From a virus: DNA of 64,000 nt. Below are positions 1 through 13,503 of this stretch, in pieces. Below the pieces are notes generated by a model. That model worked only from the letters and a program-made list of their open reading frames with translations, did not search any database and was not told the origin of the DNA. Positions within the stretch are counted from its first letter, which is position 1, and the number at the start of each line of letters is the position of its first letter. Location: positions 1 to 64,000 of the IMG/VR virus record IMGVR_UViG_3300042197_003184; one strand, 5' to 3'. The position numbers and the translations under genes are program-made.

Positions 1-10
1 ATTTTGTTCG

Positions 11-88
11 TAAGTCGTTGTGGCATAAGCACTTACGACGCGGCGGGCCGGCCACCCTCGCCCTAAGTCATTGGCAGTCAACAACTTA
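11..88. repeat. Bipartite dyad element R1
   Basis: TAAGTCGTT-GTGGCAT-AAGCACTTA (11-35), 28-bp GC-rich linker, TAAGTCATT-GGCAGTC-AACAACTTA (64-88). Confidence 0.95.
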
Positions 89-100
89 GAGCGATTGGCT

Positions 101-607
101 TTATTCGGCCTCAATAGGCTCATCTTCAGTAAAAAACTCACCCATATTATATTCATCCCACAAACGCTTAGGAATCATATCGTGATGGGTATACTCCACA
201 TAATGATCGTCACCATCCTGCCACAATCCACAATACGCCATTCCCGGTTCCCAGTATGTAGCCTCAACCTTGAATCCCAACTCTACCAATCGTTCATACA
301 ATCCAAGAGGAGGACTCCATGCACTATCAAAAGTCATAGTCGCCTGATTGTCCACAACGGTAGGATTCAATCCGTGGGCCTCATTATTATCACTACCTAC
401 GTCCCATTTTGTATTCCAATTATTTACGCACCAATTATACCAATAATCCGGATGGGTGGTATCAGTTATCAACTCACCATTACCGTCCCTAGGTACCGGT
501 AAATAATGGTCACAAACCTTACCTTCCTTATAGGCATGGACAAACTCCATAACCTTAGCCCTATCTTCATGCTCAATAGTCAGATTATTTTGACACCAAT
601 TAGGCAT
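101..607 (-). CDS. YubB/DUF1281-like ferredoxin-fold phage protein
   Basis: MPNWCxN start, WYNWCVNNWNTKWD and FDSAWSPP motifs; start moved to 607 because a -10 box lies at 631-636. Confidence 0.75.
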   Translation of the reverse strand: MPNWCQNNLTIEHEDRAKVMEFVHAYKEGKVCDHYLPVPRDGNGELITDTTHPDYWYNWCVNNWNTKWDVGSDNNEAHGLNPTVVDNQATMTFDSAWSPPLGLYERLVELGFKVEATYWEPGMAYCGLWQDGDDHYVEYTHHDMIPKRLWDEYNMGEFFTEDEPIEAE

Positions 608-1193
608 AAACAAACCCTTTCTTCTGCACAAGTATACCTTGTTGTTTCAGTTCTGTCAAGAGTCGCTTCCGAGCATACACATTTACAAAGCCATCAAAAG
701 TTTCATTATAGACCAGTTTTTTTGATCTCATATTAGAGTCAAAAGTAATTTGATAGCCGTGTTTTCCCCGTGTATACCCTTCCTTGGTCCACTCTGTTAT
801 CATTTCGCTATCAGTCCATTTGATCGTAATACCGTATGGATTGAGAAAAACGAAAAAGATTACATCAAAACACTCTGGTTTGATTTTATGAAACACATAT
901 TTTGTACGATTGCTTTTTTTATCATAAGGTTGCACAGTTCCCAGTTTTACCTCAACCCTAACATGATTCTCTACCAACAAATCATAATCCCCACTCTCAC
1001 CACAATGGATAACATCAAAACCACGCTCCATCAACTTTTTTTGCAATAACTTTTCAGTATATGTACCCCTATCATGGCTATTGCATAGATTCAGAGCATA
1101 GGCAAACTCATTTTTTTGTATGCTAAACAGGATAGCGTCCAGCATAGACCTTCCGTCCTGCCTAACACAATCAAGGTCTGCTATAGTGAACAT
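600..1193 (-). CDS. PD-(D/E)xK endonuclease
   Basis: GTYTE...GDYDLLV...VEVK motif series. Confidence 0.7.
   Translation of the reverse strand: MFTIADLDCVRQDGRSMLDAILFSIQKNEFAYALNLCNSHDRGTYTEKLLQKKLMERGFDVIHCGESGDYDLLVENHVRVEVKLGTVQPYDKKSNRTKYVFHKIKPECFDVIFFVFLNPYGITIKWTDSEMITEWTKEGYTRGKHGYQITFDSNMRSKKLVYNETFDGFVNVYARKRLLTELKQQGILVQKKGFVYA
631..659 (-). promoter_or_regulatory. sigma70-type early promoter
   Basis: TTGACA-17-TATACT on minus strand. Confidence 0.8.
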
Positions 1194-1199
1194 AGTGCT

Positions 1200-1227
1200 A
1201 TTCTATCACACTAAAATTTTTTGTCAA
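1200..1227 (-). promoter_or_regulatory. sigma70-type promoter, probably leaderless
   Basis: TTGACA-16-TAGAAT; ATG starts 7 nt after the -10 box. Confidence 0.75.
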
Positions 1228-1235
1228 CAGAACCA

Positions 1236-1274
1236 CGCTGACTATTGCCCATCACCGCAAATCCGTAGGATTAG
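1236..1274. repeat. GCTGACTAT plus GNA-triloop hairpin motif, copy 1
   Basis: cGCTGACTAT..AATCC-GTA-GGATTag; related copies at 5472 and 6327. Confidence 0.7.
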
Positions 1275-1450
1275 GAAAGACAACCAGACTCGCTACAGTC
1301 AATGACTACTTGACCCACCATGGTTCGCTCAAGGAAAATACGCTTTCCATATTCTTTCTCGGCTTTTTGCATAGCAGAGTATTCGGAATATGCTTTGACA
1401 TATCCAACGAGCCTACATTCTCTCCAGACTGCCCACAAGTATTCAGTCAT
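1271..1450 (-). CDS. hypothetical early protein
   Basis: ATG at 1450 overlaps the upstream stop (MTEYLWAVW...). Confidence 0.65.
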   Translation of the reverse strand: MTEYLWAVWRECRLVGYVKAYSEYSAMQKAEKEYGKRIFLERTMVGQVVIDCSESGCLS

Positions 1451-1694
1451 CCTCAGTCTCCGCAAACATATCATCCCATGCCACACTGTCAATACCGGTC
1501 ATGCACACTTCACGCTCATCGGCACTCAGGTACGGAAATGCTACTTGAACCAACTCCCCATTGAGCCAACGATTCATGTCCGCTAACTTGACCTGAACAG
1601 TAAACGGACGACCATCCAAACTTTCGCCCGTCATGGTCAAATCCTGACCGTCTTCACTAACCGTTTTCGTACAGTTCGCCAGAGCATATCTCAT
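1443..1694 (-). CDS. hypothetical early protein
   Basis: AGAGGAG SD, directly downstream of a promoter. Confidence 0.8.
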   Translation of the reverse strand: MRYALANCTKTVSEDGQDLTMTGESLDGRPFTVQVKLADMNRWLNGELVQVAFPYLSADEREVCMTGIDSVAWDDMFAETEDD

Positions 1695-1717
1695 AGTTTT
1701 TCTCCTCTTATCCCCTC

Positions 1718-1760
1718 ATTCTACTGCTCTATTATCGGCTTGTCAATAGAGAAAACTTTA
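1718..1760 (-). promoter_or_regulatory. composite sigma70/sigma28-like promoter
   Basis: TTGACA-17-TAGAAT overlapping TAAA-N17-GCCGATAA. Confidence 0.8.
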
Positions 1761-1777
1761 GCAGAAAAGATTTGTTG

Positions 1778-1855
1778 TAAAGTGTTGGTGGGTAAAGACT
1801 TACGTCAAACGGGGCCGCGAGCCCTCGCCCTAAGTGCTGCCGTAGCAACAACTTA
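1778..1855. repeat. Bipartite dyad element R2
   Basis: dyads at 1778-1802 and 1831-1855, 53-bp period. Confidence 0.95.
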
Positions 1856-1880
1856 GGGTTAGGGTTTCGAGAAAGAGAGA

Positions 1881-2294
1881 TCAGCAGAAGAAACTAGCCA
1901 CCTTCGGACTCTTGAACAGAGTACCAGCAAGGATAGGCTTTCGGCAATTCACTGCACGTTCACAGTAGAACTGTCGAATTTTACCATCCACAGTCTGACA
2001 CGTTACCAGATGATTAGTACGCTTGAACTGAGGATCGTTTCTACGATAGTTACTACGTCGGTTCATCAGTTTGATCCAAGTAGAATCCAGCGTAGCAACA
2101 GGCTCGATAACCTTAGCCAGATACCTTTCTGGCTCACCATTCAACGGTTGGAGATATTCAAAGTTGAAGACATCACCAACCTTAGCATTCGACAACGAAG
2201 TCCTAGAACCACCATAGATGGCATAGAACAGAAAGCCAGCAAAGCCAGCAGCAACAACAGCAAACAAACCACCAAGCACAATCCAATCAGTCAT
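1881..2294 (-). CDS. membrane-anchored hypothetical protein
   Basis: N-terminal hydrophobic helix; own promoter. Confidence 0.8.
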   Translation of the reverse strand: MTDWIVLGGLFAVVAAGFAGFLFYAIYGGSRTSLSNAKVGDVFNFEYLQPLNGEPERYLAKVIEPVATLDSTWIKLMNRRSNYRRNDPQFKRTNHLVTCQTVDGKIRQFYCERAVNCRKPILAGTLFKSPKVASFFC

Positions 2295-2332
2295 ACTAAA
2301 CCCTTTCGTTTGAAAATCCTAAATCTACAACC

Positions 2333-2360
2333 AGTCTACCACAATTTTTCTGTCTGTCAA
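2333..2360 (-). promoter_or_regulatory. sigma70-type promoter
   Basis: TTGACA-16-TAGACT. Confidence 0.7.
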
Positions 2361-2683
2361 GGGGAGATCACCATTCCGCTATAGAACGGATATTCGTTAC
2401 GACTACCATGGGCGGTAGGCACCTGCACATACCATTCATGATTACGCTGGCGAACCTTGAACGGGCTATACTGGTTGATACGATCCTTAGTGGTGGCGGT
2501 CTGCCATCCCCCATTGCTCAGTGTATACGTACCATCCTCGTGGATGCGAACCACACACGTACTATGCAGAGTGATTCCGACCGAGCCATCTGGCAGGATT
2601 TCCGCATAGGTATTGTTTCCAACCTTGCGACGAGTACGATAAGAAATACCCTTAACCATCTTAACCGCTTCAGCGTGTGTCAT
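2357..2683 (-). CDS. hypothetical early protein
   Basis: GWQTATTKDRIN motif; promoter upstream. Confidence 0.8.
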   Translation of the reverse strand: MTHAEAVKMVKGISYRTRRKVGNNTYAEILPDGSVGITLHSTCVVRIHEDGTYTLSNGGWQTATTKDRINQYSPFKVRQRNHEWYVQVPTAHGSRNEYPFYSGMVISP

Positions 2684-2707
2684 ATTCTTTTCCCTTTCGT
2701 TTCACTA

Positions 2708-2748
2708 AGTCTACATCTATTATCGGCACCTGTCAAGAGAAATCTTTA
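2708..2748 (-). promoter_or_regulatory. composite sigma70/sigma28-like promoter
   Basis: TTGACA-17-TAGACT overlapping TAAA-N17-GCCGATAA. Confidence 0.8.
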
Positions 2749-2767
2749 GAAAAATCTTTTTGTGTCG

Positions 2768-2845
2768 TAAAGTATTGAGGGATAAAGACTTACGTCAAAC
2801 GGGGCCGCGAGCCCTCACCCTAAGTGCTTTCGCACAAAGGGTTTA
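2768..2845. repeat. Bipartite dyad element R3
   Basis: dyads at 2768-2792 and 2821-2845; linker nearly identical to R2. Confidence 0.95.
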
Positions 2846-2854
2846 GGGCAAGAT

Positions 2855-3085
2855 TCACTCAAAGTCTACAAACACCACCTGAGCATAGCCGCGAGGCTTT
2901 AGGGTCAAACTATCTCCCCAGTTCTCAGTTTCGCAACGAACCCCGGTCAATCCGGCCAGTTCCTTGGCACGACGCACAATGCTACGTTGAGATTCTGGAT
3001 TCTTTGGCAGAAACTCATAACGATTCACCCAGCCATAATTAGCCTCACCACCAAACGTATCAGTCTGAGTCACAACACACTTCAT
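2855..3085 (-). CDS. hypothetical early protein
   Basis: TDTFGGEANYGWV motif; AAGGA SD. Confidence 0.8.
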   Translation of the reverse strand: MKCVVTQTDTFGGEANYGWVNRYEFLPKNPESQRSIVRRAKELAGLTGVRCETENWGDSLTLKPRGYAQVVFVDFE

Positions 3086-3086
3086 C

Positions 3087-3158
3087 TTACTTTCCTTTCT
3101 TTTCGTTCATTTGAACCACAATTCGAACAATTCGAGGAATACAATCTTCAGTCTTCAT
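3087..3158 (-). CDS. 23-aa micropeptide
   Basis: GAGGTG SD; MKTEDCIPRIVRIVVQMNEKKGK; coupled to neighbouring ORFs. Confidence 0.45.
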   Translation of the reverse strand: MKTEDCIPRIVRIVVQMNEKKGK

Positions 3159-3258
3159 CGTTCACCTCTTGGGTTGGAGCAAATACTAGGTCGCTTACCA
3201 GATACGATCCAATTATACCACAAACCACACCCAGAGTAAAGACCACATAAGGCTCCAT
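3148..3258 (-). CDS. 36-aa single-TM micropeptide
   Basis: AAGGAGG SD; MEPYVVFTLGVVCGIIGSYLVSDLVFAPTQEVNDED. Confidence 0.6.
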   Translation of the reverse strand: MEPYVVFTLGVVCGIIGSYLVSDLVFAPTQEVNDED

Positions 3259-3268
3259 TTTTCCCTCC

Positions 3269-3343
3269 TTAGATCAGAATAGCCATCACACACCCAGCCA
3301 CAAAACAAACCCCAAATAAAATCATCTCCTTAGGCCCAATCAT
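3269..3343 (-). CDS. 24-aa single-TM micropeptide
   Basis: AAGGAG SD; MIGPKEMILFGVCFVAGCVMAILI. Confidence 0.55.
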   Translation of the reverse strand: MIGPKEMILFGVCFVAGCVMAILI

Positions 3344-3424
3344 ATCCGATCTCCTTGTGGTTGTCAATCCCTATATCTATTATCGGCCAAATCCACCCAT
3401 AAGATCAAATAATTTTTCTTTCTG

Positions 3425-3502
3425 CAAAACGTTGTGAGATAAGGACTTAGGAACAATTTGTGCGGCCCGCCTCGCCCTAAGTTCTTTAGGGACAAGGCTT
3501 TA
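3425..3502. repeat. Bipartite dyad element R4
   Basis: dyads at 3425-3449 and 3478-3502. Confidence 0.9.
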
Positions 3503-3504
3503 GG

Positions 3505-3711
3505 TTAAGAAAGTACGTTGTCTGTACTAAATGAACACACGTTCAGTCCACTAGCCGCAGTGATAATATCAAACATTTTTCCGATATGCTCCTGTCGTTC
3601 CAGCGGTGTGCTCATATCATGCTCAGGAATATCTAGTACATACTCTTGAGTCAGGGGAATTTCTTCGAACTTTTCATTCTCTACTTTGATGTCATAGAAT
3701 CGGTGCAACAT
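3505..3711 (-). CDS. hypothetical early protein
   Basis: start overlaps upstream stop. Confidence 0.7.
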   Translation of the reverse strand: MLHRFYDIKVENEKFEEIPLTQEYVLDIPEHDMSTPLERQEHIGKMFDIITAASGLNVCSFSTDNVLS

Positions 3712-4109
3712 TAGAAACTCTCCGTAAAGTCAGCACTAATACCCATCTGTTCCCGAACGTCCGGGTCAGTAAGTGTATCCTCATCCATCATAAAGTCAAG
3801 GTCATCGAAAAAGATTTCCAACTCAGGCTCACCCTCATAAATCATGATTTTTGCAAAATCGTACAACATGAAATATGTCGTAGCCTGCACCCACGACTGA
3901 ACCACATTAGAATGAAGTTCGATTGTGTGCCGATTATTATAGACATACTCTATAGCGGAGCACTTAGTATTATCGCTCATCGTGCTCCATACCGGAATAC
4001 GATCATTGTACTTATTCAGTTCATACGACAATTCATTATGGTTCTTCCAGTCTTTATAATTCTCATACGTTGCTTCGATCATACCCTGTGCTATATTACG
4101 ATAGTACAT
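3711..4109 (-). CDS. hypothetical early protein
   Basis: coupled ORF with acidic C-terminus. Confidence 0.75.
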   Translation of the reverse strand: MYYRNIAQGMIEATYENYKDWKNHNELSYELNKYNDRIPVWSTMSDNTKCSAIEYVYNNRHTIELHSNVVQSWVQATTYFMLYDFAKIMIYEGEPELEIFFDDLDFMMDEDTLTDPDVREQMGISADFTESF

Positions 4110-4366
4110 CAGTAGTCCTCCCCATAGTAGCCGTAATCCTCATCGGTTCCAAATCCAGCATCTCGCATGGCACTGTCGAAATCCCCATCCATGCTATCAT
4201 CGACATCATTGTCCCAAACATCATCTTCCTCGTTTTCATCATAATCCTCATCCCAACTATCAAATTCATTCCAAGCGTTCTCGTCGTGGAAATCGTTGTA
4301 ATCGTCGTAGTTCATATCGTTTTCGTAAGAGTTATCGGGATCGAACAGGGGGTCAGGGTGACTCAT
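4109..4366 (-). CDS. extremely acidic protein (DNA-mimic candidate)
   Basis: 34 of 85 residues D/E, one R, no K; AAGGA SD. Confidence 0.75.
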   Translation of the reverse strand: MSHPDPLFDPDNSYENDMNYDDYNDFHDENAWNEFDSWDEDYDENEEDDVWDNDVDDSMDGDFDSAMRDAGFGTDEDYGYYGEDY

Positions 4367-4387
4367 GTGCTATTCCTTTCTCTAGTG

Positions 4388-4423
4388 TTATCGACATTCT
4401 ACACATAGAACTTGAGTTGTCAA
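4388..4423 (-). promoter_or_regulatory. composite sigma70/sigma28-like promoter
   Basis: TTGACA-16-TAGAAT plus TCAA-N16-GTCGATAA. Confidence 0.75.
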
Positions 4424-4453
4424 GCAAAAAAACACAAAAATAATTTCGTTTCG

Positions 4454-4531
4454 TAAACTGTTGATACGTAACGACTTACGACGAGCCGGGCCGCGGCGCC
4501 TCGCTCTAAGTTCTTTAGTAGCAAGGCTTTG
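4454..4531. repeat. Bipartite dyad element R5
   Basis: dyads at 4454-4478 and 4507-4531; 4454-4466 is an exact IHF consensus match on the minus strand. Confidence 0.95.
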
Positions 4532-4534
4532 CGT

Positions 4535-4780
4535 TCAATCTCCAAACGGGTTGTCGTCACCGTAACTTACGTATCCCACAGCCTCGTCCGCATGGAAGTC
4601 TTCGCGGTAATTATCTGACATAAAAACAACATCGGGTTCGATCTCGTCGCTCACCCCCACAACATCGGCCCAATCGTAGAAATCCGTTTGGATATTAGGA
4701 TCGTCAATCGGCTCGATCATGCCGTCGTCCACCATCTCGGCCAGAATCCGGTTAACATCATCAAAATCGTTCAGCATCAT
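4535..4780 (-). CDS. acidic hypothetical protein
   Basis: AAGGAG SD before ATG at 4780; D/E-rich. Confidence 0.7.
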   Translation of the reverse strand: MMLNDFDDVNRILAEMVDDGMIEPIDDPNIQTDFYDWADVVGVSDEIEPDVVFMSDNYREDFHADEAVGYVSYGDDNPFGD

Positions 4781-4842
4781 CTTCTCCTTGTGAAGTTCAC
4801 CAACGAACGCCATCATACTGGGAAAGTGATTCATGTCAACAC

Positions 4843-5106
4843 CTAAATTTGAGCCCAAGCCCTAAAACTTTGAGCAGAGGAACAGAACGCCATATCGTCC
4901 GAATCTCCACCGTAACCTTTGATTGTTTGAGCATACCAGATATATCCGCCCATCTCCCCCAACACTTCACGAAACCACCCGCTACCATCTTTTTTCGCGT
5001 AGGCTTCACCAACAAAAACCTTTGCTCTACTATTGAGCCAAATAATATCCCCGGTTTTCGTACCCAACATCGCCATAGCCTTTTGAACTTCCGATTTCGT
5101 AGACAT
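4843..5106 (-). CDS. hypothetical early protein
   Basis: AAGGAG SD and promoter upstream. Confidence 0.8.
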   Translation of the reverse strand: MSTKSEVQKAMAMLGTKTGDIIWLNSRAKVFVGEAYAKKDGSGWFREVLGEMGGYIWYAQTIKGYGGDSDDMAFCSSAQSFRAWAQI

Positions 5107-5118
5107 ACCTTGCTCCTT

Positions 5119-5155
5119 ATATCGTCATTCTACGCCTATAAAATCTACTTGTCAA
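5119..5155 (-). promoter_or_regulatory. composite sigma70/sigma28-like promoter
   Basis: TTGACA-17-TAGAAT followed by GACGATAT. Confidence 0.75.
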
Positions 5156-5318
5156 TAGTCTTTTGAAAAACAGTATCCAAATAAATCTCTCTATTCGTCA
5201 CAACCCACCCATATTCCGCTTCTGGAGTATAAACCCCAACATACAGTTTTCCACCATCCACACCCTCAAACCCCACACCATATCCTACCATACTAGCCAT
5301 CAAAAGTATACTGAACAT
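5145..5318 (-). CDS. 57-aa hypothetical protein (absent from ORF track)
   Basis: AAGGAG SD; MFSILLMASMVGYGVGFEG...IDK; preceded by TGAA-N16-GCCGATAT/TATAAT. Confidence 0.65.
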   Translation of the reverse strand: MFSILLMASMVGYGVGFEGVDGGKLYVGVYTPEAEYGWVVTNREIYLDTVFQKTIDK

Positions 5319-5384
5319 CCTTTTTCTCCTTAGATATTATATCGGCCAACCCCACCAATATCTTCACTTAAAAATCACAGAATA

Positions 5385-5462
5385 TAAACCCCTATCCTGC
5401 AACAACTTACGTTAAACGGGGCCGCGAGATTTTGACCTAAGTCCTTATGGGTCAATGACTTA
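5385..5462. repeat. Bipartite dyad element R6
   Basis: dyads at 5385-5409 and 5438-5462. Confidence 0.9.
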
Positions 5463-5471
5463 CGCTGACTA

Positions 5472-5502
5472 GCTGACTATCGCCATCAAGCCGGAGGCTT
5501 AG
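5472..5502. repeat. GCTGACTAT plus GNA-triloop hairpin motif, copy 2
   Basis: AAGCC-GGA-GGCTTag. Confidence 0.7.
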
Positions 5503-5514
5503 GTGAAACAATGT

Positions 5515-5901
5515 TCATCCATCACCCCTCCATGAGAAGGGGCTGATCTCCTCGCCATGAGACATGATAGCGGCATACTGTTCGGCCAGAGCCTCGACAC
5601 GCTCACGACTACCCCGTTTCCCGACCTTGATAATCATCGTATCCTCACCCCCCACAATTCGGGGATCGGCCTTCTCTGCCTTGCTCTTGCCCAATCGCCG
5701 CAATGCCTTGCGATTGAACTTCATAACCTTTTCGGTTACAAGGTATCTCTTATGGCCATCCACCCCATAGACATAGAAAGCGTCTTCGCCTTCTATCGCC
5801 CTATCGTCCGGGATCTCAACCAGATCGACCGTCGCCATACCAAGGAAACACATACGGGCTTGAATCTTGGCGTTTTCGATGATAGCGTACTTGGTTTTCA
5901 T
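5515..5901 (-). CDS. hypothetical early protein
   Basis: 128-aa ORF with purine-rich leader. Confidence 0.75.
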   Translation of the reverse strand: MKTKYAIIENAKIQARMCFLGMATVDLVEIPDDRAIEGEDAFYVYGVDGHKRYLVTEKVMKFNRKALRRLGKSKAEKADPRIVGGEDTMIIKVGKRGSRERVEALAEQYAAIMSHGEEISPFSWRGDG

Positions 5902-5948
5902 AGTTCTCTCTTTCTGTGTGTCAAAGGATACCGGTTTCGGTCAGACTA

Positions 5949-6137
5949 TCAACCCCCACAATCGAGGGAGGACAGATACTCTTGATTGTAGAAAACTACA
6001 TCCTCAAGATCCTCAATCTGACGATAGATTTGCGACCTAACGCTAGACGGCATACCATCATCCAGCATATCACGAAGATCGGTAATCTTCCGCATAGCCC
6101 AACTCGTTTCGTTCATTACTTTCTGTCGCTCGGTCAT
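5949..6137 (-). CDS. hypothetical early protein
   Basis: directly downstream of a promoter. Confidence 0.75.
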   Translation of the reverse strand: MTERQKVMNETSWAMRKITDLRDMLDDGMPSSVRSQIYRQIEDLEDVVFYNQEYLSSLDCGG

Positions 6138-6161
6138 CTTATTCTCTCTTTCTTTTCTCTT

Positions 6162-6189
6162 ATTCTACATATAGTTATCGTCGCGTCAA
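6162..6189 (-). promoter_or_regulatory. composite sigma70/sigma28-like promoter
   Basis: TTGACG-16-TAGAAT with GACGATAA in spacer. Confidence 0.75.
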
Positions 6190-6222
6190 TAAAAAAAAAT
6201 GAGGAAAAAGAAAAATATTTTT

Positions 6223-6238
6223 TGGTACAGTATTTGCT
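6223..6238 (+). promoter_or_regulatory. sigma54 (-24/-12) box
   Basis: TGGTACAGTATTTGCT, GG-N10-GC. Confidence 0.7.
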
Positions 6239-6248
6239 ATGATCGTTG

Positions 6249-6326
6249 TAAGTTGTTGATACATAAGCACTTACGTCAAATTCGCGGGCGCCTTGTTGTT
6301 GTAAGTCTTTATGTAGTAAGGGTTTA
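6249..6326. repeat. Bipartite dyad element R7
   Basis: dyads at 6249-6273 and 6302-6326; 6249-6261 is an exact IHF consensus match on the minus strand. Confidence 0.95.
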
Positions 6327-6363
6327 CGCTGACTATGCCCATATTGCCAAGCCGTAGGCTTAG
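6327..6363. repeat. GCTGACTAT plus GNA-triloop hairpin motif, copy 3
   Basis: AAGCC-GTA-GGCTTag. Confidence 0.7.
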
Positions 6364-6536
6364 CTGATACAGTGTTTCCACCTGAACAGGAGTTCAGTAG
6401 CAGCAGCCCGTATGCCTTCCATCAGCATTTCACGAATAGCCCCCTCCGAAGTGGGGAGTCTCCATTGTGCTTCGTGCAACCATAGTTGAATTGTGCTAGT
6501 GTTCATTTGTTCAAATGTTGGAGAGTAATAGTTCAT
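6360..6536 (-). CDS. hypothetical early protein
   Basis: likely start MNYYSPT after AAAGG. Confidence 0.65.
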   Translation of the reverse strand: MNYYSPTFEQMNTSTIQLWLHEAQWRLPTSEGAIREMLMEGIRAAATELLFRWKHCIS

Positions 6537-6546
6537 ACTTGACCTT

Positions 6547-6747
6547 TCAGTTAGCGGCTTCCATAACATCGAACGACACACACTTGTCAAGATAGATCGA
6601 CCTATACCCTTGCTCGCACTTGACAGTCAACAGGACACGCTCAGTCTCGTGACCTTCACCGGGAGGCATGGAGCGAACCTTGACCACTTCGCCATTCACG
6701 ATTTCGCCATTGTTGTATTCCGCAAACACAAAGTCACCAACATTCAT
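6547..6747 (-). CDS. small beta-barrel-like (SH3/KOW-like) hypothetical protein
   Basis: MNVGDFV...GEVVKV pattern; promoter upstream. Confidence 0.7.
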   Translation of the reverse strand: MNVGDFVFAEYNNGEIVNGEVVKVRSMPPGEGHETERVLLTVKCEQGYRSIYLDKCVSFDVMEAAN

Positions 6748-6772
6748 TTTCTTTCTCTCTTTCTTTGCTCTT

Positions 6773-6800
6773 ATTCTACATATTCATATCGTCAAGTCAA
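6773..6800 (-). promoter_or_regulatory. composite sigma70/sigma28-like promoter
   Basis: TTGACT-16-TAGAAT; TGAA-N16-GACGATAT. Confidence 0.75.
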
Positions 6801-6810
6801 CAAAAAAAAT

Positions 6811-7056
6811 TCAGTAGTACAACCAATCCTTCAGAATATTGCCATTAGCATCAACTTCGATATACTCGCCCTCATCCCCACAAGGGAAAAAGCCTTCAAT
6901 GTATCCGTTCAATCCCTTATGGGCAATGTCGTTTGCCAGAGCTTCGGCGAGCAACTCTCCACCGATGGTAGCAACCCCAACTAACGTATCGGGAGAAGTG
7001 CTATCCGCACCATACAGGAACTCGACCAATTCGTCTCGACTGTTTAGCGTAACCAT
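6811..7056 (-). CDS. acidic hypothetical protein
   Basis: AAGGA SD; promoter upstream. Confidence 0.75.
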   Translation of the reverse strand: MVTLNSRDELVEFLYGADSTSPDTLVGVATIGGELLAEALANDIAHKGLNGYIEGFFPCGDEGEYIEVDANGNILKDWLYY

Positions 7057-7079
7057 TTTTCTTATCCTTCTTTTCTCTT

Positions 7080-7107
7080 AGTCTACATAATATTATCGGC
7101 TTGTCAA
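7080..7107 (-). promoter_or_regulatory. composite sigma70/sigma28-like promoter
   Basis: TTGACA-16-TAGACT with GCCGATAA in spacer. Confidence 0.75.
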
Positions 7108-7139
7108 ACAAAAAAAAATAGAAAAAAGAAAAATATTTT

Positions 7140-7155
7140 TGGCATAGTATTTGCT
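7140..7155 (+). promoter_or_regulatory. sigma54 (-24/-12) box
   Basis: TGGCATAGTATTTGCT. Confidence 0.75.
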
Positions 7156-7165
7156 ATATGCGTCG

Positions 7166-7243
7166 TAAGTCGTTATATATCAAGTACTTACGTCAAATTC
7201 GCGGGCGCGATTTTTTTCTAACTCCTTATGCCACAAGGATTTA
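7166..7243. repeat. Bipartite dyad element R8
   Basis: dyads at 7166-7190 and 7219-7243; TATCAAGTACTTA (7178-7190) is an exact IHF consensus match. Confidence 0.95.
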
Positions 7244-7316
7244 CGTATAGTAGTAGTTTAGGGGGGTGCGTCTAACCCCCCGGTTTAGGTGGTACACCCC
7301 CACTCTAGGTAGTGTA

Positions 7317-7517
7317 CTAGCGTACCCTGTGCATGTATACCCTACTGATACCGCACGATGACACCCCCCAACCGGGGCAGTTCCAAATCCAATCCGGCAA
7401 CCCCTTGGATTGGGGGTGGAAGTATCCGTCAACGTGTAACGTATCGGGATGATTCGGAACCTTTTGAACGTTTAGATTGTATTTTTCCAACGCTACGATC
7501 ATTTGAGATACGCTCAT
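7317..7517 (-). CDS. hypothetical early protein
   Basis: AAGGA SD. Confidence 0.7.
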   Translation of the reverse strand: MSVSQMIVALEKYNLNVQKVPNHPDTLHVDGYFHPQSKGLPDWIWNCPGWGVSSCGISRVYMHRVR

Positions 7518-7574
7518 GATTTTCCTTTTTTTGATGAAAAACTTTTTTACCCTTGAATCGGCCGGTCTATCCCC

Positions 7575-7781
7575 TTACCGGGGGGTAGCCCCGTTTGCTT
7601 TTGCATACCGATACATGGCACGTTCATCTACCATAAACCTTCGAACACCGTTCAAATCCTTGAAATTCCAATGGTAGGTTAGAACGTCTGACTTGACCAT
7701 CCATCGGGCTTCAACGTCCGAAGTCTTTTTCAGCGTATAACCCATTTTATTCAACTCTTTTGCAATCGTTTGGCTGTTCAT
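7575..7781 (-). CDS. hypothetical early protein
   Basis: start MNSQTIAKE downstream of promoter 7807-7834. Confidence 0.7.
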   Translation of the reverse strand: MNSQTIAKELNKMGYTLKKTSDVEARWMVKSDVLTYHWNFKDLNGVRRFMVDERAMYRYAKANGATPR

Positions 7782-7806
7782 TTCTTTTCTCTCTTTCTTT
7801 TCACTC

Positions 7807-7846
7807 ATTCTACATACTATATCGTCAACGTCAAGAAAAAAAATTA
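7807..7846 (-). promoter_or_regulatory. composite sigma70/sigma28-like promoter
   Basis: TTGACG-16-TAGAAT; TAAT-N16-GACGATAT. Confidence 0.75.
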
Positions 7847-7866
7847 GGAAAAATCTTTTTCTTTTT

Positions 7867-7882
7867 TGGCATGGGTTTTGCT
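7867..7882 (+). promoter_or_regulatory. sigma54 (-24/-12) box
   Basis: TGGCATGGGTTTTGCT. Confidence 0.75.
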
Positions 7883-7917
7883 GCCCGAGGGGATTAGGTG
7901 AGACTTTCCTATTTTGC

Positions 7918-8121
7918 CTAAATCCTCCATTCGAGAAATTCGAGAGTAAACACCATTCCGGGATACTTATTTCCGATATACTTTTCCGCAGTAGACTTAC
8001 GATTATCGGTAGCCGAAACACACTGGACTACCTTACCATCGGAAATCACTTTCCAAATTCGACGACGACGAATCCGAGGAAGGCTACCGATGAAACTGTT
8101 TACGCTGATTGAAGGTTGCAT
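7918..8121 (-). CDS. basic hypothetical early protein
   Basis: Arg-rich 67-aa ORF after a promoter. Confidence 0.7.
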   Translation of the reverse strand: MQPSISVNSFIGSLPRIRRRRIWKVISDGKVVQCVSATDNRKSTAEKYIGNKYPGMVFTLEFLEWRI

Positions 8122-8152
8122 TTTCTTTTTCTCTCTTTCTTTCTTACTCTTT

Positions 8153-8188
8153 ATATCGACATTCTACATTCAAAACTTTACTTGTCAA
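8153..8188 (-). promoter_or_regulatory. composite sigma70/sigma28-like promoter
   Basis: TTGACA-16-TAGAAT; TAAAGTTT-N12-GTCGATAT. Confidence 0.8.
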
Positions 8189-8204
8189 GAAAAGAAAATC
8201 AGAA

Positions 8205-8414
8205 TCATGAAACCCCCATCCAATCGGCATTTTCGATACAATAATCGTAAAACATATCGTTCAACACTTCAACATAGTTGGAATCCGTCAACCGACGACG
8301 CTGCATGGTGGATTCACACTCTGCAAAAAACTTTCCGTTTTCTTCCACAATCTTGCAATTGTGCCATTCGTCGCCGAAAATTTCCACCATCGTCAAATGA
8401 TACGGGCTAACCAT
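8205..8414 (-). CDS. hypothetical early protein
   Basis: start MVSPYHLT downstream of promoter 8446-8473. Confidence 0.7.
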   Translation of the reverse strand: MVSPYHLTMVEIFGDEWHNCKIVEENGKFFAECESTMQRRRLTDSNYVEVLNDMFYDYCIENADWMGVS

Positions 8415-8445
8415 TTTTCTACTCTCTCTTTCTTTCTTTTCAATC

Positions 8446-8473
8446 ATTCTACATATAGTATCGTCGGTTGCAA
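8446..8473 (-). promoter_or_regulatory. composite sigma70/sigma28-like promoter
   Basis: TTGCAA-16-TAGAAT with GACGATAC in spacer. Confidence 0.7.
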
Positions 8474-8505
8474 GAAAAAAAATCAGAAAAAAAGAAAAAA
8501 TTTTT

Positions 8506-8521
8506 TGGCACAGGATTTGCT
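8506..8521 (+). promoter_or_regulatory. sigma54 (-24/-12) box
   Basis: TGGCACAGGATTTGCT, near-perfect RpoN consensus. Confidence 0.8.
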
Positions 8522-8527
8522 CAGGCT

Positions 8528-8552
8528 TTCCCCACCATAGGGGGGTTTTTTT
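8528..8552 (+). terminator. possible intrinsic terminator (plus strand)
   Basis: TTCCCC-ACCATA-GGGGGG followed by T7. Confidence 0.45.
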
Positions 8553-8656
8553 GTTTCTGAAATATCGTCCGAAAAAATGCCAGAAAGCCCGCGGTGGTGC
8601 ATACGCAATAGGCGCCCTCAGAAAATAATTGGCCAGTTTATTAGCCATTATCTTTA

Positions 8657-9079
8657 TTATGATTCCAGAACCATGCCGCTGCTGTCTGTTTTAAATCCAA
8701 AAGACTCATAGAATCCCACCAAATTCTTATTGCAATTCAACTTGATTTTGTAACAGTTGTTGCTCTTGGCCACATCGACACAATAATTTACTATTATTTT
8801 TCCATAGCCTTTACCTCTGCTGTTCTTACTAACCGCCACATCTTCTATATGACAGCATAATCTTTGGTATCTTAGTTTCTTTTCCATGATTATTGTTGCT
8901 GTTGATACTATCTTATTATTGTCTATACCCACAAACGTCAAAACATTGGACGGCCGAATACCCAGAGCCTCACTTATCTGCTCAACAGAACAAATATTAG
9001 ACCTTCCACTATTGAGTTCTGACACAACATCTAAATATTCTTCCAGATTATCGGAACATTCTAATAACTTAATAAACAT
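8657..9079 (-). CDS. GNAT acetyltransferase, glucosamine-6-phosphate N-acetyltransferase (GNA1)-like
   Basis: HIEDVAV..RGKGYGK acetyl-CoA motif; CYKIKLNC; FYESFGF. Confidence 0.8.
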   Translation of the reverse strand: MFIKLLECSDNLEEYLDVVSELNSGRSNICSVEQISEALGIRPSNVLTFVGIDNNKIVSTATIIMEKKLRYQRLCCHIEDVAVSKNSRGKGYGKIIVNYCVDVAKSNNCYKIKLNCNKNLVGFYESFGFKTDSSGMVLES

Positions 9080-9080
9080 T

Positions 9081-10688
9081 TTATCTCCTTACTATTCCAT
9101 TCCATCCTACGCTAGTTTGTCCAGAGATAGGATCGAATACTACTATTTGTATATTATTATTTCCTCTCTTAAGCCAATTACGATTCAAAGATATATTGAA
9201 TCCATGATACCCTGAACCAACTACAGGAACCAGGTTCTGTTTGTATTTATTAGCTAACTGCCCAGTTACCACCCTTCCGTTTATAACTACCCTCACTACC
9301 ACAGGCGAAGATCCCGATCTTTCGCTAAAGGCCCATCCGGACACCCTGTTTTTACTTAAAAACCCAACTCTTACCACAGGGGGTGCGATTTTGATAGTCG
9401 TAGTTCCTATGGTGTTCCACAACCCGCTCTGAAGGTCTCTGGCCTTAATTTCTATAATATGGTCGCCAATAACCAAACCTCCTAAATTAAACCTCCAAAC
9501 TCCGCCGACCCCAGTAACAAGATCCCCCTTTTCTGAGCCATTTATAATTAATTTTACGCTTATTGGACTATTACTAAAATCAGGATCATTAGCCCACCCA
9601 CCAACGGTTTTGAGATCTTGAAAAGTTATAGCTCCTATCGGAACGTGATTACTATCATAAGGTATATTCAAAACATTACAAACCGCTGCTGCTATATTCA
9701 GTTTGCCACCAGAAGCTACCTTACCAAATAATTCTGGTATTCTATCGACCGAAGAAAAAATAGCTTCTTTCACTTCTGATATAGATAGGCTCGGTTTAAT
9801 AGCTTTTAATAAAGCAACCGCCCCAGCAACCTGAGGCGCTGCCATACTAGTTCCGCTCATATATCCATAGTTGTTGTATGGGATCGTAGAGTATATTATG
9901 GATCCTGGAGCAGCTAAATCTACAGTAGTAGCCCCATAGTTAGAAAAACCCACCAAGCCATTAGAGTAACTACTCAAAGCTCCCACACTAATAATATTAG
10001 GACTATCATAACAGCTAGGATATCTTAAAGTAATATCATTATCGCTTCCATTATTACCCGCAGCTACGGTTAATATCACGCCATCATTATTTAATTGATT
10101 GATCGCTCCATACAACATATTACTAAAACCAGTCCCCCCACCCCAACTAGCATTTGCGACAACGACATTAACCCCATAAGTGTTTTTCATCATACTTATG
10201 TAACTCATAGCATTAGCAGCCGCCCCAGTATATCCCATCCCCTGTTCGTCTGTAAATTTTAATGTCATCAAACTAACATTCCAATTAATTCCCGCAACCC
10301 CCCAAGCATTGTTCCCTTCTGCTCCAATTACGCCAGCAATATGAGTGCCGTGTCCATATCTATCTTGAATATCATTATTGTTAGAATAAAAATTCCATCC
10401 ATGAATATCGTCTATATATCCATTGCCTTCATTGTCTATACCATCTCCGGCTATTTCTCCACTATTTGTCCATAGGTTACCTATCAGGTCCTGATGATTC
10501 AAATCTATCCCACTATCTATAATAGCGACAACAACATCTCTTGATCCCCTAGAATAATCCCAAGCCCCAAAAGCGCTCATATTACGAAGAGCCCATTGAT
10601 TATTAATTAGCGGATCATTAGGAGCTGTTGATAATAGTTTTTTATTTTCTAAATGTTCTATGCCTAACGAGAAAACTTTTTTGTTCAT
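9081..10688 (-). CDS. S8 subtilisin-family serine protease with planctomycete-type N-terminal signal
   Basis: IIDSG, HGTHIAG, AAGN, GTSMAAP; N-terminal LGIEHLENKKLLS. Confidence 0.93.
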   Translation of the reverse strand: MNKKVFSLGIEHLENKKLLSTAPNDPLINNQWALRNMSAFGAWDYSRGSRDVVVAIIDSGIDLNHQDLIGNLWTNSGEIAGDGIDNEGNGYIDDIHGWNFYSNNNDIQDRYGHGTHIAGVIGAEGNNAWGVAGINWNVSLMTLKFTDEQGMGYTGAAANAMSYISMMKNTYGVNVVVANASWGGGTGFSNMLYGAINQLNNDGVILTVAAGNNGSDNDITLRYPSCYDSPNIISVGALSSYSNGLVGFSNYGATTVDLAAPGSIIYSTIPYNNYGYMSGTSMAAPQVAGAVALLKAIKPSLSISEVKEAIFSSVDRIPELFGKVASGGKLNIAAAVCNVLNIPYDSNHVPIGAITFQDLKTVGGWANDPDFSNSPISVKLIINGSEKGDLVTGVGGVWRFNLGGLVIGDHIIEIKARDLQSGLWNTIGTTTIKIAPPVVRVGFLSKNRVSGWAFSERSGSSPVVVRVVINGRVVTGQLANKYKQNLVPVVGSGYHGFNISLNRNWLKRGNNNIQIVVFDPISGQTSVGWNGIVRR

Positions 10689-10773
10689 ATCAGCTTCCTT
10701 GCTTTGATTTTATGACAGAATTTCAGACAACACCCTGAAACTATCAGAAAAATCTTAGAAGTCAAGAAACATC

Positions 10774-12585
10774 TTATTCGACTGTTACGCTTTTAGCTAA
10801 ATTTCTAGGCTTATCAACATTCTTATTTCTTAATATTGCAGAATAATACGAGAATAGCTGCAAAGGAACCACAGAAACCAAAGGACTCAAAGCATCGCAT
10901 ACACTAGGTACTCTTATTTTATAATCGCCCAGATCTCCATAATTGGAATATATTCCAATAACTTTGCCATCTCTGGCTTGAATCTCTTTTATATTATTGA
11001 TTATTTTATTATGATTCTCATAGTTATTAGCAACCACAACAACAGGCATGTTTCTATCTATCAAAGCAATAGGACCATGTTTCATTTCAGCAGCAGGATA
11101 TCCTTCAGCATGAACATAGCTAATTTCTTTTAGTTTAAGAGCCCCCTCTAAAGCCACAGGAAAATTATATCCACGCCCCAAGAACAAACAATTCGTCATA
11201 GAAACAAACTCTTCAGCCACAAACTCCACAACATCACAACATCCCAGAGTGTCTTGTAAAATATTTGGCAAATCACGCAAATCGTCCATAATAGCTTTTC
11301 TATAATCGACAGATATAACCCCATCTATCTGCTCAATCCACAAAGCCAACAACAACAGACAAATCACCTGATTAGTAAAAGTCTTGGTACTAGCCACACC
11401 AACCTCCACCCCGCTTCTTAAATGAATTCCACAGTTGGTTAGCTTGCTCATACTAGAACTCACAACATTACATATACCAACAGTAATTGCTCCATAAATC
11501 TTAGCAATCTCCAAAGCCCCCAGAGTATCAGCAGTTTCCCCACTCTGACTAACCCCTATGACAATATCCCCCTCGTTGATCACAGGCTTTCGATATCTAA
11601 ACTCACTAGCATACTCCACACTCACTTTTATCTTACAAAGCTCTTCAATATAATACTTAGCCAGTAAAGAAGCGTGCCAAGAAGACCCACAACTTACTAT
11701 AGTAATATGATTCGCTTTTTTAAATATATTCTCATATCCTATCAGTCCCCCTAATTTAACCCTGTACCCATCTAGTCGTCCACTCAAACAATCATGTACC
11801 GTTTTGGGTTGTTCGTATATCTCCTTTAGCATATAACTATCAAAATCACCCTTATTGATCTTTAATACTTTACTATAGACCTTTTCAATTTCATAGTCTA
11901 TTTCTATTCCTTTGCTCATATCAAACACTTCCAGTCTGTCTTTCACCTCAACAACAACATTATCTTCCAGATAAACCACACCCACACTAGCTCTATCACC
12001 AAAAGCCCCCACATCACTAGCTACCATAGTCTCATTCACCCCAAACCCAACAACCAAAGGACTTCCTTTTCTAGCAGCTATCATTTGGCCAGTTTCCCCA
12101 TCTAATATTACTATAGCATAGGCCCCTATTACTTTTTCTAAAGACGATTTGATACCATCAATTAATGACCCTTTAATTTTGGTTTGATGATATATTAGGT
12201 ACAACAATACTTCAGAATCAGTATCACTAACAAAACTATATTCGGATAGCTCTTTCTTTAGATCTTCGTAATTTTCGATAATACCATTATGTGCTATTGC
12301 TAGTTTATTATCGTTCGTAACATGAGGATGAGAATTTCTTTTACAAGGCTTACCATGAGTGGCCCATCTGGTGTGTCCAATAGCGCTATAGGTTTCTATA
12401 TCAGGATTTTTGATTTTTTGCCTTAGATCTTCAATACTACCGGTTTGTTTGGTAGTAATCATATTATTCCCAACTATATAGCTAATTCCGGCACTATCAT
12501 AGCCCCTATACTCTAAACTTTGCAAACCATCTAAAATAAAAGACAAGCATTTGCTTTGTCCCTTATAGGCCACTATCCCACACAT
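10774..12585 (-). CDS. glmS: glutamine--fructose-6-phosphate aminotransferase
   Basis: MCGIV, LEYRGYDSAG, GHTRWATHG, SQSGETAD, PRNLAKSVTVE. Confidence 0.98.
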   Translation of the reverse strand: MCGIVAYKGQSKCLSFILDGLQSLEYRGYDSAGISYIVGNNMITTKQTGSIEDLRQKIKNPDIETYSAIGHTRWATHGKPCKRNSHPHVTNDNKLAIAHNGIIENYEDLKKELSEYSFVSDTDSEVLLYLIYHQTKIKGSLIDGIKSSLEKVIGAYAIVILDGETGQMIAARKGSPLVVGFGVNETMVASDVGAFGDRASVGVVYLEDNVVVEVKDRLEVFDMSKGIEIDYEIEKVYSKVLKINKGDFDSYMLKEIYEQPKTVHDCLSGRLDGYRVKLGGLIGYENIFKKANHITIVSCGSSWHASLLAKYYIEELCKIKVSVEYASEFRYRKPVINEGDIVIGVSQSGETADTLGALEIAKIYGAITVGICNVVSSSMSKLTNCGIHLRSGVEVGVASTKTFTNQVICLLLLALWIEQIDGVISVDYRKAIMDDLRDLPNILQDTLGCCDVVEFVAEEFVSMTNCLFLGRGYNFPVALEGALKLKEISYVHAEGYPAAEMKHGPIALIDRNMPVVVVANNYENHNKIINNIKEIQARDGKVIGIYSNYGDLGDYKIRVPSVCDALSPLVSVVPLQLFSYYSAILRNKNVDKPRNLAKSVTVE

Positions 12586-12621
12586 TATGCATTCCTATTT
12601 AATAAGAGTATTTTTATAAAA

Positions 12622-12655
12622 CAAAAATAAAGGGCAAACATTTCTGCTTGCCCCT
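12622..12655 (-). terminator. intrinsic terminator
   Basis: GGGGCAAGCA-GAAA-TGTTTGCCCT followed by T-rich run. Confidence 0.7.
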
Positions 12656-12661
12656 TAAATA

Positions 12662-12970
12662 TCAGTACCTATATACTGAAGCATATACTAGTGGACCAGT
12701 AGGAGGACCCACAGGAGCACTATTAATTATATATGATGGCCTATTACAAAATCCAAACCATGGTCTATACTGATAAACCACAGGATGATTAACAACACTA
12801 TAATGATGATAAATAACCACAGGATAGTGAGTTACCACAGGAACATAATGGGTAGTTGGCACATATACAACTTCTTGTTTAACAACAGGTACCCACACAC
12901 TATTATCTGCATAACTATAATTTGGCCATAAACATAATAACAGGCCAAAAATTACCGAAAAAGCTTTCAT
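12662..12970 (-). CDS. secreted Tyr/Val/Pro-rich protein
   Basis: signal peptide MKAFSVIFGLLLCLWPNYSYA; AAGGA SD. Confidence 0.7.
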   Translation of the reverse strand: MKAFSVIFGLLLCLWPNYSYADNSVWVPVVKQEVVYVPTTHYVPVVTHYPVVIYHHYSVVNHPVVYQYRPWFGFCNRPSYIINSAPVGPPTGPLVYASVYRY

Positions 12971-12983
12971 AAATAGTCCTTTA

Positions 12984-13220
12984 TTATTGTTGATTACTTT
13001 CCACACTAGATTCTGGATGACTAACAACTCTATTCTTAGGTCTTCGTCCTTTTGGCTTTCTAATTCCTAGTTTGCGTCTTTGACGTCTGATCATTGCTGT
13101 ACTAATAGTTTGGCCAGTCATTTGGCTTAATTTGGCACTTAGTTCCTCATCACTCAAAAGAACTTGATTATCCTCAATAAACTTTAATTCAGCATCAGTC
13201 CACTTTTTGTAATTAGCCAT
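12984..13220 (-). CDS. small HTH DNA-binding protein
   Basis: KWTDAE...SDEELSAKL...AMIRRQRRKLGI. Confidence 0.7.
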   Translation of the reverse strand: MANYKKWTDAELKFIEDNQVLLSDEELSAKLSQMTGQTISTAMIRRQRRKLGIRKPKGRRPKNRVVSHPESSVESNQQ

Positions 13221-13311
13221 AAATTTTGTCCTTTGGTGTAAATATTGACTAGTCTAAGAAACTCTTTACTATAATACAGTTTGACAAGTTTGATGCAAGG
13301 AGACATATCCG

Positions 13312-13503
13312 ATGAATCAAAATTTTAATATTGTAGATTCTATTTTGGAAGTTAAGGCTTGTGGATCAATTGCTGATATTTCGGCCGATTTATCCTTACA
13401 GTCCACCAAAACCATATCAGAGCTATTAGATGACCAAAAAGAACCAGAAACCAAAGAAGAAAATAGTCAAGAAGAAAACCAGGAAAACCTTAGATCAGAG
13501 TAA
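13312..13503 (+). CDS. hypothetical protein
   Basis: AAGGAG SD; overlaps the next gene. Confidence 0.55.
   Translation: MNQNFNIVDSILEVKACGSIADISADLSLQSTKTISELLDDQKEPETKEENSQEENQENLRSE

Follow-up and report, generated by a model that had tools for sequence, protein, structure and literature searches.

Paired, promoter-phased palindromes at the borders of early gene units in uncultivated phages: a candidate protein-docking module

Two described designs come closest to the element reported here. The promoter early stem-loops (PeSLs) of T4-type phages are defined by a terminator stem-loop, whose position relative to the promoter varies, with five subclasses, and their recombination into mini-circles was shown experimentally (PMC2839356; PMC4122927). 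In phage phi29, the sites of p4 (with p6) lie between promoters A2c, A2b and A3; each CTTTTT-N15-AAAATG repeat binds one dimer of this small DNA-bending protein, largely through indirect A-tract readout, and the two sites of a region together give rise to a bent, higher-order nucleoprotein structure by which early transcription is switched (PMC3100819). We analysed a 78-bp element that occurs eight times (R1 to R8) at positions 11-7243 of the viral contig IMGVR_UViG_3300042197_003184. The stretch studied, hereafter the window, is the first 64 kb of this linear 139,964-bp contig, which is estimated to be 94% complete. The element resembles both designs and lacks defining features of both; we found no published description of it. 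With a probability of about 0.6, we read it as a protein-docking module on double-stranded DNA that controls or insulates early genes.

Like the PeSLs, the element is a composite intergenic cassette repeated in an early region that is hyperplastic and rich in small orphan genes, and it is likewise accompanied by a strong sigma-70-like promoter, an AT-rich upstream stretch, a G+C-rich motif and about 100 bp of conservation at module borders (PMC2839356; PMC4122927). It differs from them in having no conserved hairpin or terminator, in consisting of two 25-33 bp palindromes with a 53-bp spacing that are phased to the promoter, and in that the junctions that carry it are no more rearranged than others; moreover, these phages are unrelated to T4 as far as tested. 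Its likeness to the p4 sites is one of design only: in both, imperfect inverted repeats of 25-27 bp whose ends are rich in A/T are paired close to early promoters. The p4 sites occur once per genome and overlap the -35 box, whereas the elements number 14-16 per genome and lie 20-65 bp upstream of it. Another design with many copies in intergenic gaps, in one orientation relative to transcription, is that of the stoperators of mycobacteriophage L5 (cluster A). These are single asymmetric 13-bp sites found genome-wide and bound by the temperate immunity repressor, so that one phage protein controls many units and blocks elongation. The elements, in contrast, are double palindromes of 78 bp, occur in the early block only, and belong to phages showing no lysogeny genes.

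Each of the eight elements consists of two 25-bp dyads, and all eight align without gaps. Their coordinates, which the original prediction had taken from the sequence alone, are correct throughout. Named along the window and all oriented with the minus strand, they are R1 (11-88; dyads 11-35 and 64-88), R2 (1778-1855; dyads at 1778 and 1831), R3 (2768-2845), R4 (3425-3502), R5 (4454-4531), R6 (5385-5462), R7 (6249-6326) and R8 (7166-7243), the last being the first met along the direction of transcription. The strict pattern TAA-N4-TT-N7-AA-N4-TTA fits 12 of the 16 half-sites. The other four depart from it by a single base each, namely TT to TG at 1831 (R2), TAA to CAA at 3425 (R4), TTA to TTG at 4507 (R5) and TT to CT at 5385 (R6), so that 156/160 fixed positions are kept. 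The invariant 53-bp spacing of the dyads was found in 8/8 elements, and further claims about the anatomy also held: the linker is GC-rich (50-89% G+C; 80-100% in its central 10 bp), the inner arms are the best conserved (ACTTA in 8/8, TAAGT in 7/8), and the 7-bp cores all differ among the window copies. Flanking bases widen each dyad to a palindrome of about 33 bp, GNCS-TAA-N4-TT-N7-AA-N4-TTA-SGNC, and each copy also matches its own reverse strand, which means that the whole element has dyad symmetry.

The array is specific to this block of the genome. The strict dyad has no further copy in the 139,964-bp contig and none in the backwards control, and a profile hidden Markov model built from the eight copies retrieved those eight only in the contig. 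When one mismatch was allowed, the window gave 26 dyad matches against 9.9 ± 3.1 expected (largest shuffle 19), an excess accounted for by the 16 element half-sites. As R1 starts at base 11 of the contig, the array is probably truncated by the contig end.

The same 78-bp pattern was found in at least 119 stretches of IMG/VR, on dozens of contigs of 20-240 kb, usually in arrays with a spacing of 1-3 kb. From these we extracted 212 unique strict copies, or 472 when up to 3 mismatches were accepted. The distance between dyads is 53 bp in 164 cases, 52 bp in 11 and 54 bp in 3; in some relatives (G006 contigs C598, C712 and C1039; locus L308) a 52-bp spacing runs throughout the array. Three complete relatives carry 14-16 copies each, in a single early block of 17-20 kb and in one orientation (backwards control 0). 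The element is conserved across phages whose proteins are only 45-70% identical. Cultured phages gave no DNA match to the early region and no match to a 733-aa structural protein, and their best match to the Pol III alpha was 35% identical. Within this clade, the motif is a sensitive marker of early host-takeover regions in metagenomes.

The element is coupled to promoters with a fixed polarity. The early genes of the window (1-13,300) are driven by about 15 near-consensus promoters of the form TTGACA-N16/17-TAGAAT, and along the direction of transcription the order is the last stop codon of a unit, then the element, then the next promoter. Because about half of these promoters have no element, the elements bound units with several promoters. 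They had been said to lie just past stop codons, which is so for R4 and R5, placed 2 nt after the stop of gene 3505-3711(-) and 3 nt after that of gene 4535-4834(-). R3 and R1 stand farther off, 9 nt after gene 2855-3085(-) and 12 nt after gene 101-607(-). R2 follows gene 1881-2294(-), R6 follows gene 5515-5901(-), and R7 an open reading frame (ORF) ending at 6360. Across the family, upstream genes mostly end 2-3 nt before the element or stop at its own first TAA.

Downstream, R2, R3 and R5 start 31-32 bp from a -35 box, as the original prediction had stated. Their promoters are TTGACA-N17-TAGAAT at 1718-1746(-), with CTAAAG upstream and GCCGATAA in the spacer, and TTGACA-N17-TAGACT at 2708-2736(-), with GCCGATAA, both 31 bp from the element, and TTGACA-N16-TAGAAT at 4396-4423(-), 30 bp from it. 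The promoters after R7 and R8 lie 59 and 58 bp away (TTGACG-N16-TAGAAT at 6162-6189(-), and TTGACA-N16-TAGACT with GCCGATAA at 7080-7107(-)). After R4 the best candidate is TTGACA-N17-TATGAT at 3339-3367(-), 57 bp from the element, and a weaker one stands at 3379-3408(-) beside GCCGATAA at 3380. A weak promoter, GCCGATAT/TATAAT, follows R6 near 5340-5350(-), and the promoter downstream of R1 is lost at the contig start.

This coupling extends to the family and follows the helical repeat. Among 177 oriented copies, 103 have a sigma-70-type promoter (TTGACN-N16-18-TANNNT) on one particular side and strand, while the other three configurations account for 2-5. The distances from the element to the -35 box peak at 19-21, 29-33, 40-42, 52-53 and 61-65 bp. 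Phasing was assessed with one distance value per downstream gene family (88 families), and the best period was 11.0 bp (R = 0.65), a value reached in none of 2000 jittered nulls. Within one distance class, the spacers come from 12-17 different contigs and precede several unrelated downstream genes. The phased dyad centres lie near -69, -80, -90 and -101, with a second set 53 bp further, and for this reason an upstream architectural or activator role fits better than a classical operator.

The promoters themselves carry further conserved sequence. TTTTYTAAAG stands 7-8 nt ahead of the -35 box and CCGATAA in the promoter spacer; in this genome GCCGATAA marks the promoters after R2, R3, R4 and R8 and is absent from late genes. 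The element-associated promoters (1718-1775, 2708-2765, 7080-7140, and those of relatives) are composite, with TTTTYTAAAG plus GCCGATAA just past the -35 box, like sigma-28 boxes at a non-canonical spacing. CCGATAA is absent ahead of the late genes on the plus strand, and we therefore rejected the idea that it directs the phage sigma factor to late promoters. A TTGACG in the linker was rejected as a decoy or real -35 box, since it has no -10 box after it and makes up one half of the palindrome (GACG...CGTC) that flanks the promoter-proximal dyad. Four conserved sigma-54-like boxes, TGGYAY-N5-TTGCT, were seen on the plus strand at 6223, 7140, 7867 and 8506, antisense to the early genes; they are placed back to back with A-rich sequence that lies upstream of minus-strand promoters, and two of them read into R7 and R8.

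In the mechanism that we propose, two palindromic sites of about 33 bp, with centres 53 bp (five helical turns) apart and a rigid G+C-rich core between them, would present a sequence-specific protein with docking positions on one face of the helix. The module begins where the upstream early gene ends and stands a whole number of turns before the next early promoter of the sigma-70 type. As two bound dimers or four bound monomers, the protein may bend or wrap the DNA, and thereby set the activity of the downstream promoter and separate it from transcription arriving from the upstream unit. We infer protein binding from these regularities, and the effect could be activation, shut-off or insulation. 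Such strict geometry is rare in bacterial promoter architecture and suggests a wrapped nucleoprotein complex over a simple operator.

The position of the elements, directly after stop codons and ahead of the next promoter, would also suit an RNA-level signal, in which hairpins in the transcribed element would terminate or attenuate early transcripts or direct their processing, for instance by RNase III, the enzyme that processes T7 early transcripts. Consistent with such a signal, R1-R3 and R5 fold better than shuffled sequences (z -2.6 to -3.7), and weak pairing was detected in the G+C-rich centre of the element (36-43 and 37-42; z 4.5-5.8). R4 (3468-3502), R5 (4497-4531) and about 14 related copies form an extra 12-bp hairpin, GCCTTG..CTAA/TTAG..CGAGGC, which reaches from the core of the promoter-distal dyad into the first part of the linker, and whose differences between R4 and R5 are apparently compensatory.

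The dyads themselves do not behave as RNA hairpins. Across the 212 copies, the arms showed no covariation at the variable N4 positions on either strand or in either dyad (z <= 0). Mutual information was dominated by neighbouring bases, the arm variants TAAGT, TAAAC, TAAAG and TAACT were picked independently per arm, and the arms are reverse-complementary at conserved positions only. Reverse-complement symmetry without compensatory change points to a duplex-DNA site bound by identical protein subunits, with half-sites read independently. In addition, the register of the predicted hairpin shifts between copies, R6-R8 fold no better than shuffles, and the mean folding energies of the dyads alone are -3.1 and -1.7 kcal/mol. 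On the transcribed strand, 14/212 copies have a loose hairpin followed by a T-tract; on the other strand, more of them do (21/212). Ordinary terminators with a hairpin and T-run occur elsewhere in this phage, such as the canonical intrinsic terminator at 12628-12657(-), whose 13-bp stem and T-run close the mini-operon of the genes for p78, described below, and a 102-aa protein. As an RNA signal would leave both the reverse-complement symmetry and the helical phasing to promoters unexplained, we give it little chance of being the function of the element.

If the element is a duplex-DNA site, a host protein is one possible binder. Integration host factor (IHF) bends a site of about 35 bp through two kinks that are about 9 bp apart, the nearer of which lies 6 bp from the middle T of TTR (PMC5829579). 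The original prediction interpreted the dyads as symmetrised bending sites for IHF or HU, two in-phase U-turns of which would wrap DNA between units, and which would insulate units, offer a platform for activators or act as a sink for nucleoid protein. The half-site geometry, the location on one helical face and the coupling to the next promoter stand; the assignment of the binder to IHF or HU is not supported. The TT and AA steps of the dyad are 9 bp apart (±4.5 from its centre) and TTA begins 4 bp past AA (at +10 to +12), which puts its middle T 6 bp from the AA step, in exact register with an IHF half-site, although the AA and TTA positions belonged to the search pattern itself; the window copies nonetheless keep 156/160 of its fixed positions. 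The palindrome of about 33 bp is close to the roughly 35 bp bent by IHF (PMC5829579), and the outer half-sites favour C before AA (55-58%), giving CAA-N4-TTA. R5, R7 and R8 each contain one exact match to the IHF consensus, as had been claimed, and a host protein would be present at time zero, when early promoters fire. With IHF sites such as lambda H' (WATCAANNNNTTR; PMC5829579), then, the elements share the (Y)AA-N4-TTA register, flexible steps 9 bp apart, a footprint of 33-35 bp and a location upstream of promoters.

In contrast to IHF sites, however, the elements are symmetric and paired at 53 bp, and known IHF sites are asymmetric while HU has no sequence specificity. The full consensus WATCAANNNNTTR occurs in only 27/848 half-sites (3.2%), and its W-A-T positions are not conserved: A is found at position 2 in 14-33%, T at position 3 in 8-31% (a depletion) and C at position 4 in 14-58%. 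A gene of the HU/IHF family (PF00216), which the original prediction had proposed to look for elsewhere in the genome, is absent from this phage and from 5 complete relatives. In bacterial genome collections, multi-copy matches are confined to phage-like contigs binned into metagenome-assembled genomes (MAGs). With these phage contigs set aside, the MAG chromosomes showed no enrichment of the dyad, with counts equal to the backwards control, although these MAGs may not be hosts. We conclude that a host bending protein is a possible binder, not favoured and on this evidence rather unlikely.

The repetition of four-arm sites with a 9-7-9 layout at cassette borders also recalls site-specific recombination, in which a tyrosine or serine recombinase would move gene cassettes at attC-like or res-like sites. 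The centres of subsites I and II of the gamma-delta/Tn3 res are likewise 53 bp apart. Tyrosine-recombinase cassette sites had been offered as the alternative to IHF, and a 285-aa ORF of this contig gives a Phage_integrase match of 24.5 bits, below the cut-off of 27.1. However, tyrosine and serine recombinases are absent in 5/5 complete element-bearing relatives, this contig encodes no resolvase, and a serine recombinase was found in 0/6 genomes. The cores include 218 distinct 7-bp sequences among 424, and crossover regions that are almost all different would not match. Furthermore, the copies are all direct repeats within one block, so that recombination between them would remove genes. The integrase-like ORF itself lies about 117 kb away, at contig 123821-124678(-) (L240:1255-2112), among LamG/Ig tail-fibre genes, where this sub-threshold tyrosine-recombinase match might be related to inversion or shuffling of fibre segments.

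Gene order gave the same answer. The early gene content and order are very plastic among relatives (mean adjacency conservation about 0.2), and one of them (L004) keeps 10/24 units with a single swap. Breakpoints had been predicted to fall in the element if it mediated shuffling; adjacency conservation was 0.198 across element junctions (n = 306), 0.189 across element-free junctions (n = 903; p = 0.38) and 0.139 across wide element-free junctions. With no excess of rearrangement at elements, a site-specific recombination mechanism is very unlikely, the least probable of the readings that we weighed.

The same comparison bears on a PeSL-like role, in which element and promoter form a homology patch for general recombination that shuffles early modules, protein binding being secondary. 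The setting is that of the PeSLs, a hyperplastic early region whose small orphan genes each stand behind a strong sigma-70-type promoter, with AT-rich sequence upstream and a motif rich in G+C (PMC2839356). Relatives differ strongly in the genes that they carry and in the order of these genes, and the phage encodes RecA and a PD-(D/E)XK nuclease. Yet adjacency at element junctions is no lower than elsewhere and exceeds that of wide element-free junctions, copies within a genome differ at most non-fixed positions so that identical runs are short, and homology alone needs neither an invariant 53-bp spacing nor palindromes nor phasing to promoters. We consider it decidedly unlikely that the element exists mainly for this purpose, and possible that it acts as a homology patch as a side effect only.

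For a protein-docking module, the best candidate binder is a phage protein, with a host nucleoid protein of IHF-like bending geometry as the alternative. The gene for p78 (12984-13220(-)) is the first of an operon in the early direction and encodes a 78-aa protein with a three-helix helix-turn-helix (HTH) and a basic, AT-hook-like tail. It is conserved in 5/5 complete relatives, at the head of the early operon and divergent from the gene of a phage sigma factor. In the alignment of these proteins, helix 3 (M-V/I-R-R-Q-R-R-K-L) is nearly invariant and precedes a canonical AT-hook, K-P-R-G-R-P-x-K. AT-hooks read A/T minor grooves; the invariant positions of the dyad are all A/T. The structure model has a confident three-helix core and a basic, low-confidence tail. 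Its best structural match is the DNA-binding domain of GcrA (5yiu_A; Z 6.9, rmsd 1.8 Å over 48 residues, 19% identity), and the other top matches are also DNA-binding HTH domains. Like GcrA- and Myb-type domains, p78 is predicted to have an HTH of three helices and 45-50 residues; unlike GcrA, it has no C-terminal sigma-70-interacting domain and an AT-hook instead, and the dyad contains no GANTC site.

The gene and the element also travel together. In 79 loci retrieved through p78 alone, 190 elements were found downstream of p78 and none in 733 kb upstream (control 0), and of the 35 p78 loci that extend 6 kb or more downstream, 25 carry paired dyads. The p78 family comprises 1,739 clusters, none of them named. 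Pfam detected no DNA-binding domain in the early proteins of the window or in the 20 most widespread early-region families. We detected no relationship of p78 to p4, nor a family related to p4 for any early protein, and no dyads were seen in the promoter region of p78 itself. We infer from synteny and fold that p78 may read the dyads, a tentative assignment with the odds against it.

Several observations weigh against the docking reading or against p78 as the binder. In the window, about one early promoter in two lacks an element yet is just as strong, so that the element is not needed for promoter activity as such. Promoters this near the sigma-70 consensus should not need an activator. Phasing could in part reflect inheritance of a few ancestral cassettes, although the 88 gene families argue otherwise. 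Among the p78 loci with at least 6 kb downstream, 10/35 have no element, and one element-bearing clade (L012, L049, L050) has no p78-like ORF in the stretch fetched. The most diverged p78 proteins (L062, L095) are altered in helix 3, yet their elements keep the usual motif. The structural Z-scores of p78 are modest, and values below 8 may reflect a common helical arrangement only. Finally, searches with p78 of the PDB by Foldseek, of Pfam, of PHROGs and of PDB sequences gave nothing significant; the profile search of PDB sequences was marginal (E 0.47 or worse), and PHROGs returned one weak, implausible HNH match.

Another candidate, p276 (14101-14931(+)), was dropped as a dimeric binder: its model combines an HTH with a long coiled coil, fold and sequence searches pointed to no clear family, and with its gene upstream of those for TerL and portal, a small terminase is at least as likely. 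This 276-aa protein is 73-83% identical across relatives; very long helices follow an N-terminal HTH similar to the one in p78, and the protein could be a small terminase or a regulator. Dyad pairs spaced 31 bp apart fall inside the p276 coding sequence and were discarded as pattern noise.

Taken in full, the proposal would be a new phage control system in which p78, an early protein with HTH and AT-hook, occupies some 15 phased double operators in each genome and wraps the DNA ahead of early promoters, a model that we regard as tentative and, on balance, doubtful. If it is true, one small protein would switch and topologically insulate a whole battery of host-takeover units, a bacterial-virus counterpart of an enhancer or insulator with strict helical geometry. 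The early regions of large uncultivated phages from fresh water hold long runs of orphan genes, for which the element offers a concrete and testable regulatory grammar. With a named candidate regulator from a large unannotated family, binding and phasing can be tested in vitro without phage culture. As a cassette of an insulating element and a strong promoter, it may also serve as a modular expression part.

The genes at 1-13,300 are all on the minus strand, small and with few exceptions orphans; a Kyano_Gp96-like protein and a GNAT acetyltransferase are the only products recognised by Pfam. Two of the early proteins, encoded at 4109-4366(-) and 4535-4834(-), are small and extremely acidic, resemble in composition the DNA mimics that inhibit DNA-binding or restriction proteins of the host, and are widespread (23-24 loci of relatives). 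Beside the element block and divergent from p78 lies the gene for a sigma-70-family protein of 236 aa (13430-14140(+)), in the same position in 6/6 genomes. As it heads a rightward operon toward the packaging and structural genes, this protein is probably a late sigma factor; across the 6/6 genomes it measures 215-236 aa, and region 2 only was detected.

Elsewhere, the contig encodes a replication set (a split Pol III alpha, DnaB, primase, RecA, SSB, RNR, dUTPase and PhoH) as well as TerL, portal and structural genes. The Pol III alpha is divided into two genes (PHP + NTPase; finger + HHH + OB) at contig 88380-92736(-), separated by the gene for an RNase T-like exonuclease. On either side of the control region, at 9081-12585(-) and 14924-15952(+), auxiliary genes encode a subtilase (S8), GlmS and a GDP-mannose dehydratase/epimerase. 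With a glycosyltransferase at contig 86203-87918, these predicted functions suggest that the phage modifies the cell envelope or the sugar-nucleotide pool. The window also contains a single ORF of 5,733 aa at 32301-49502(+).

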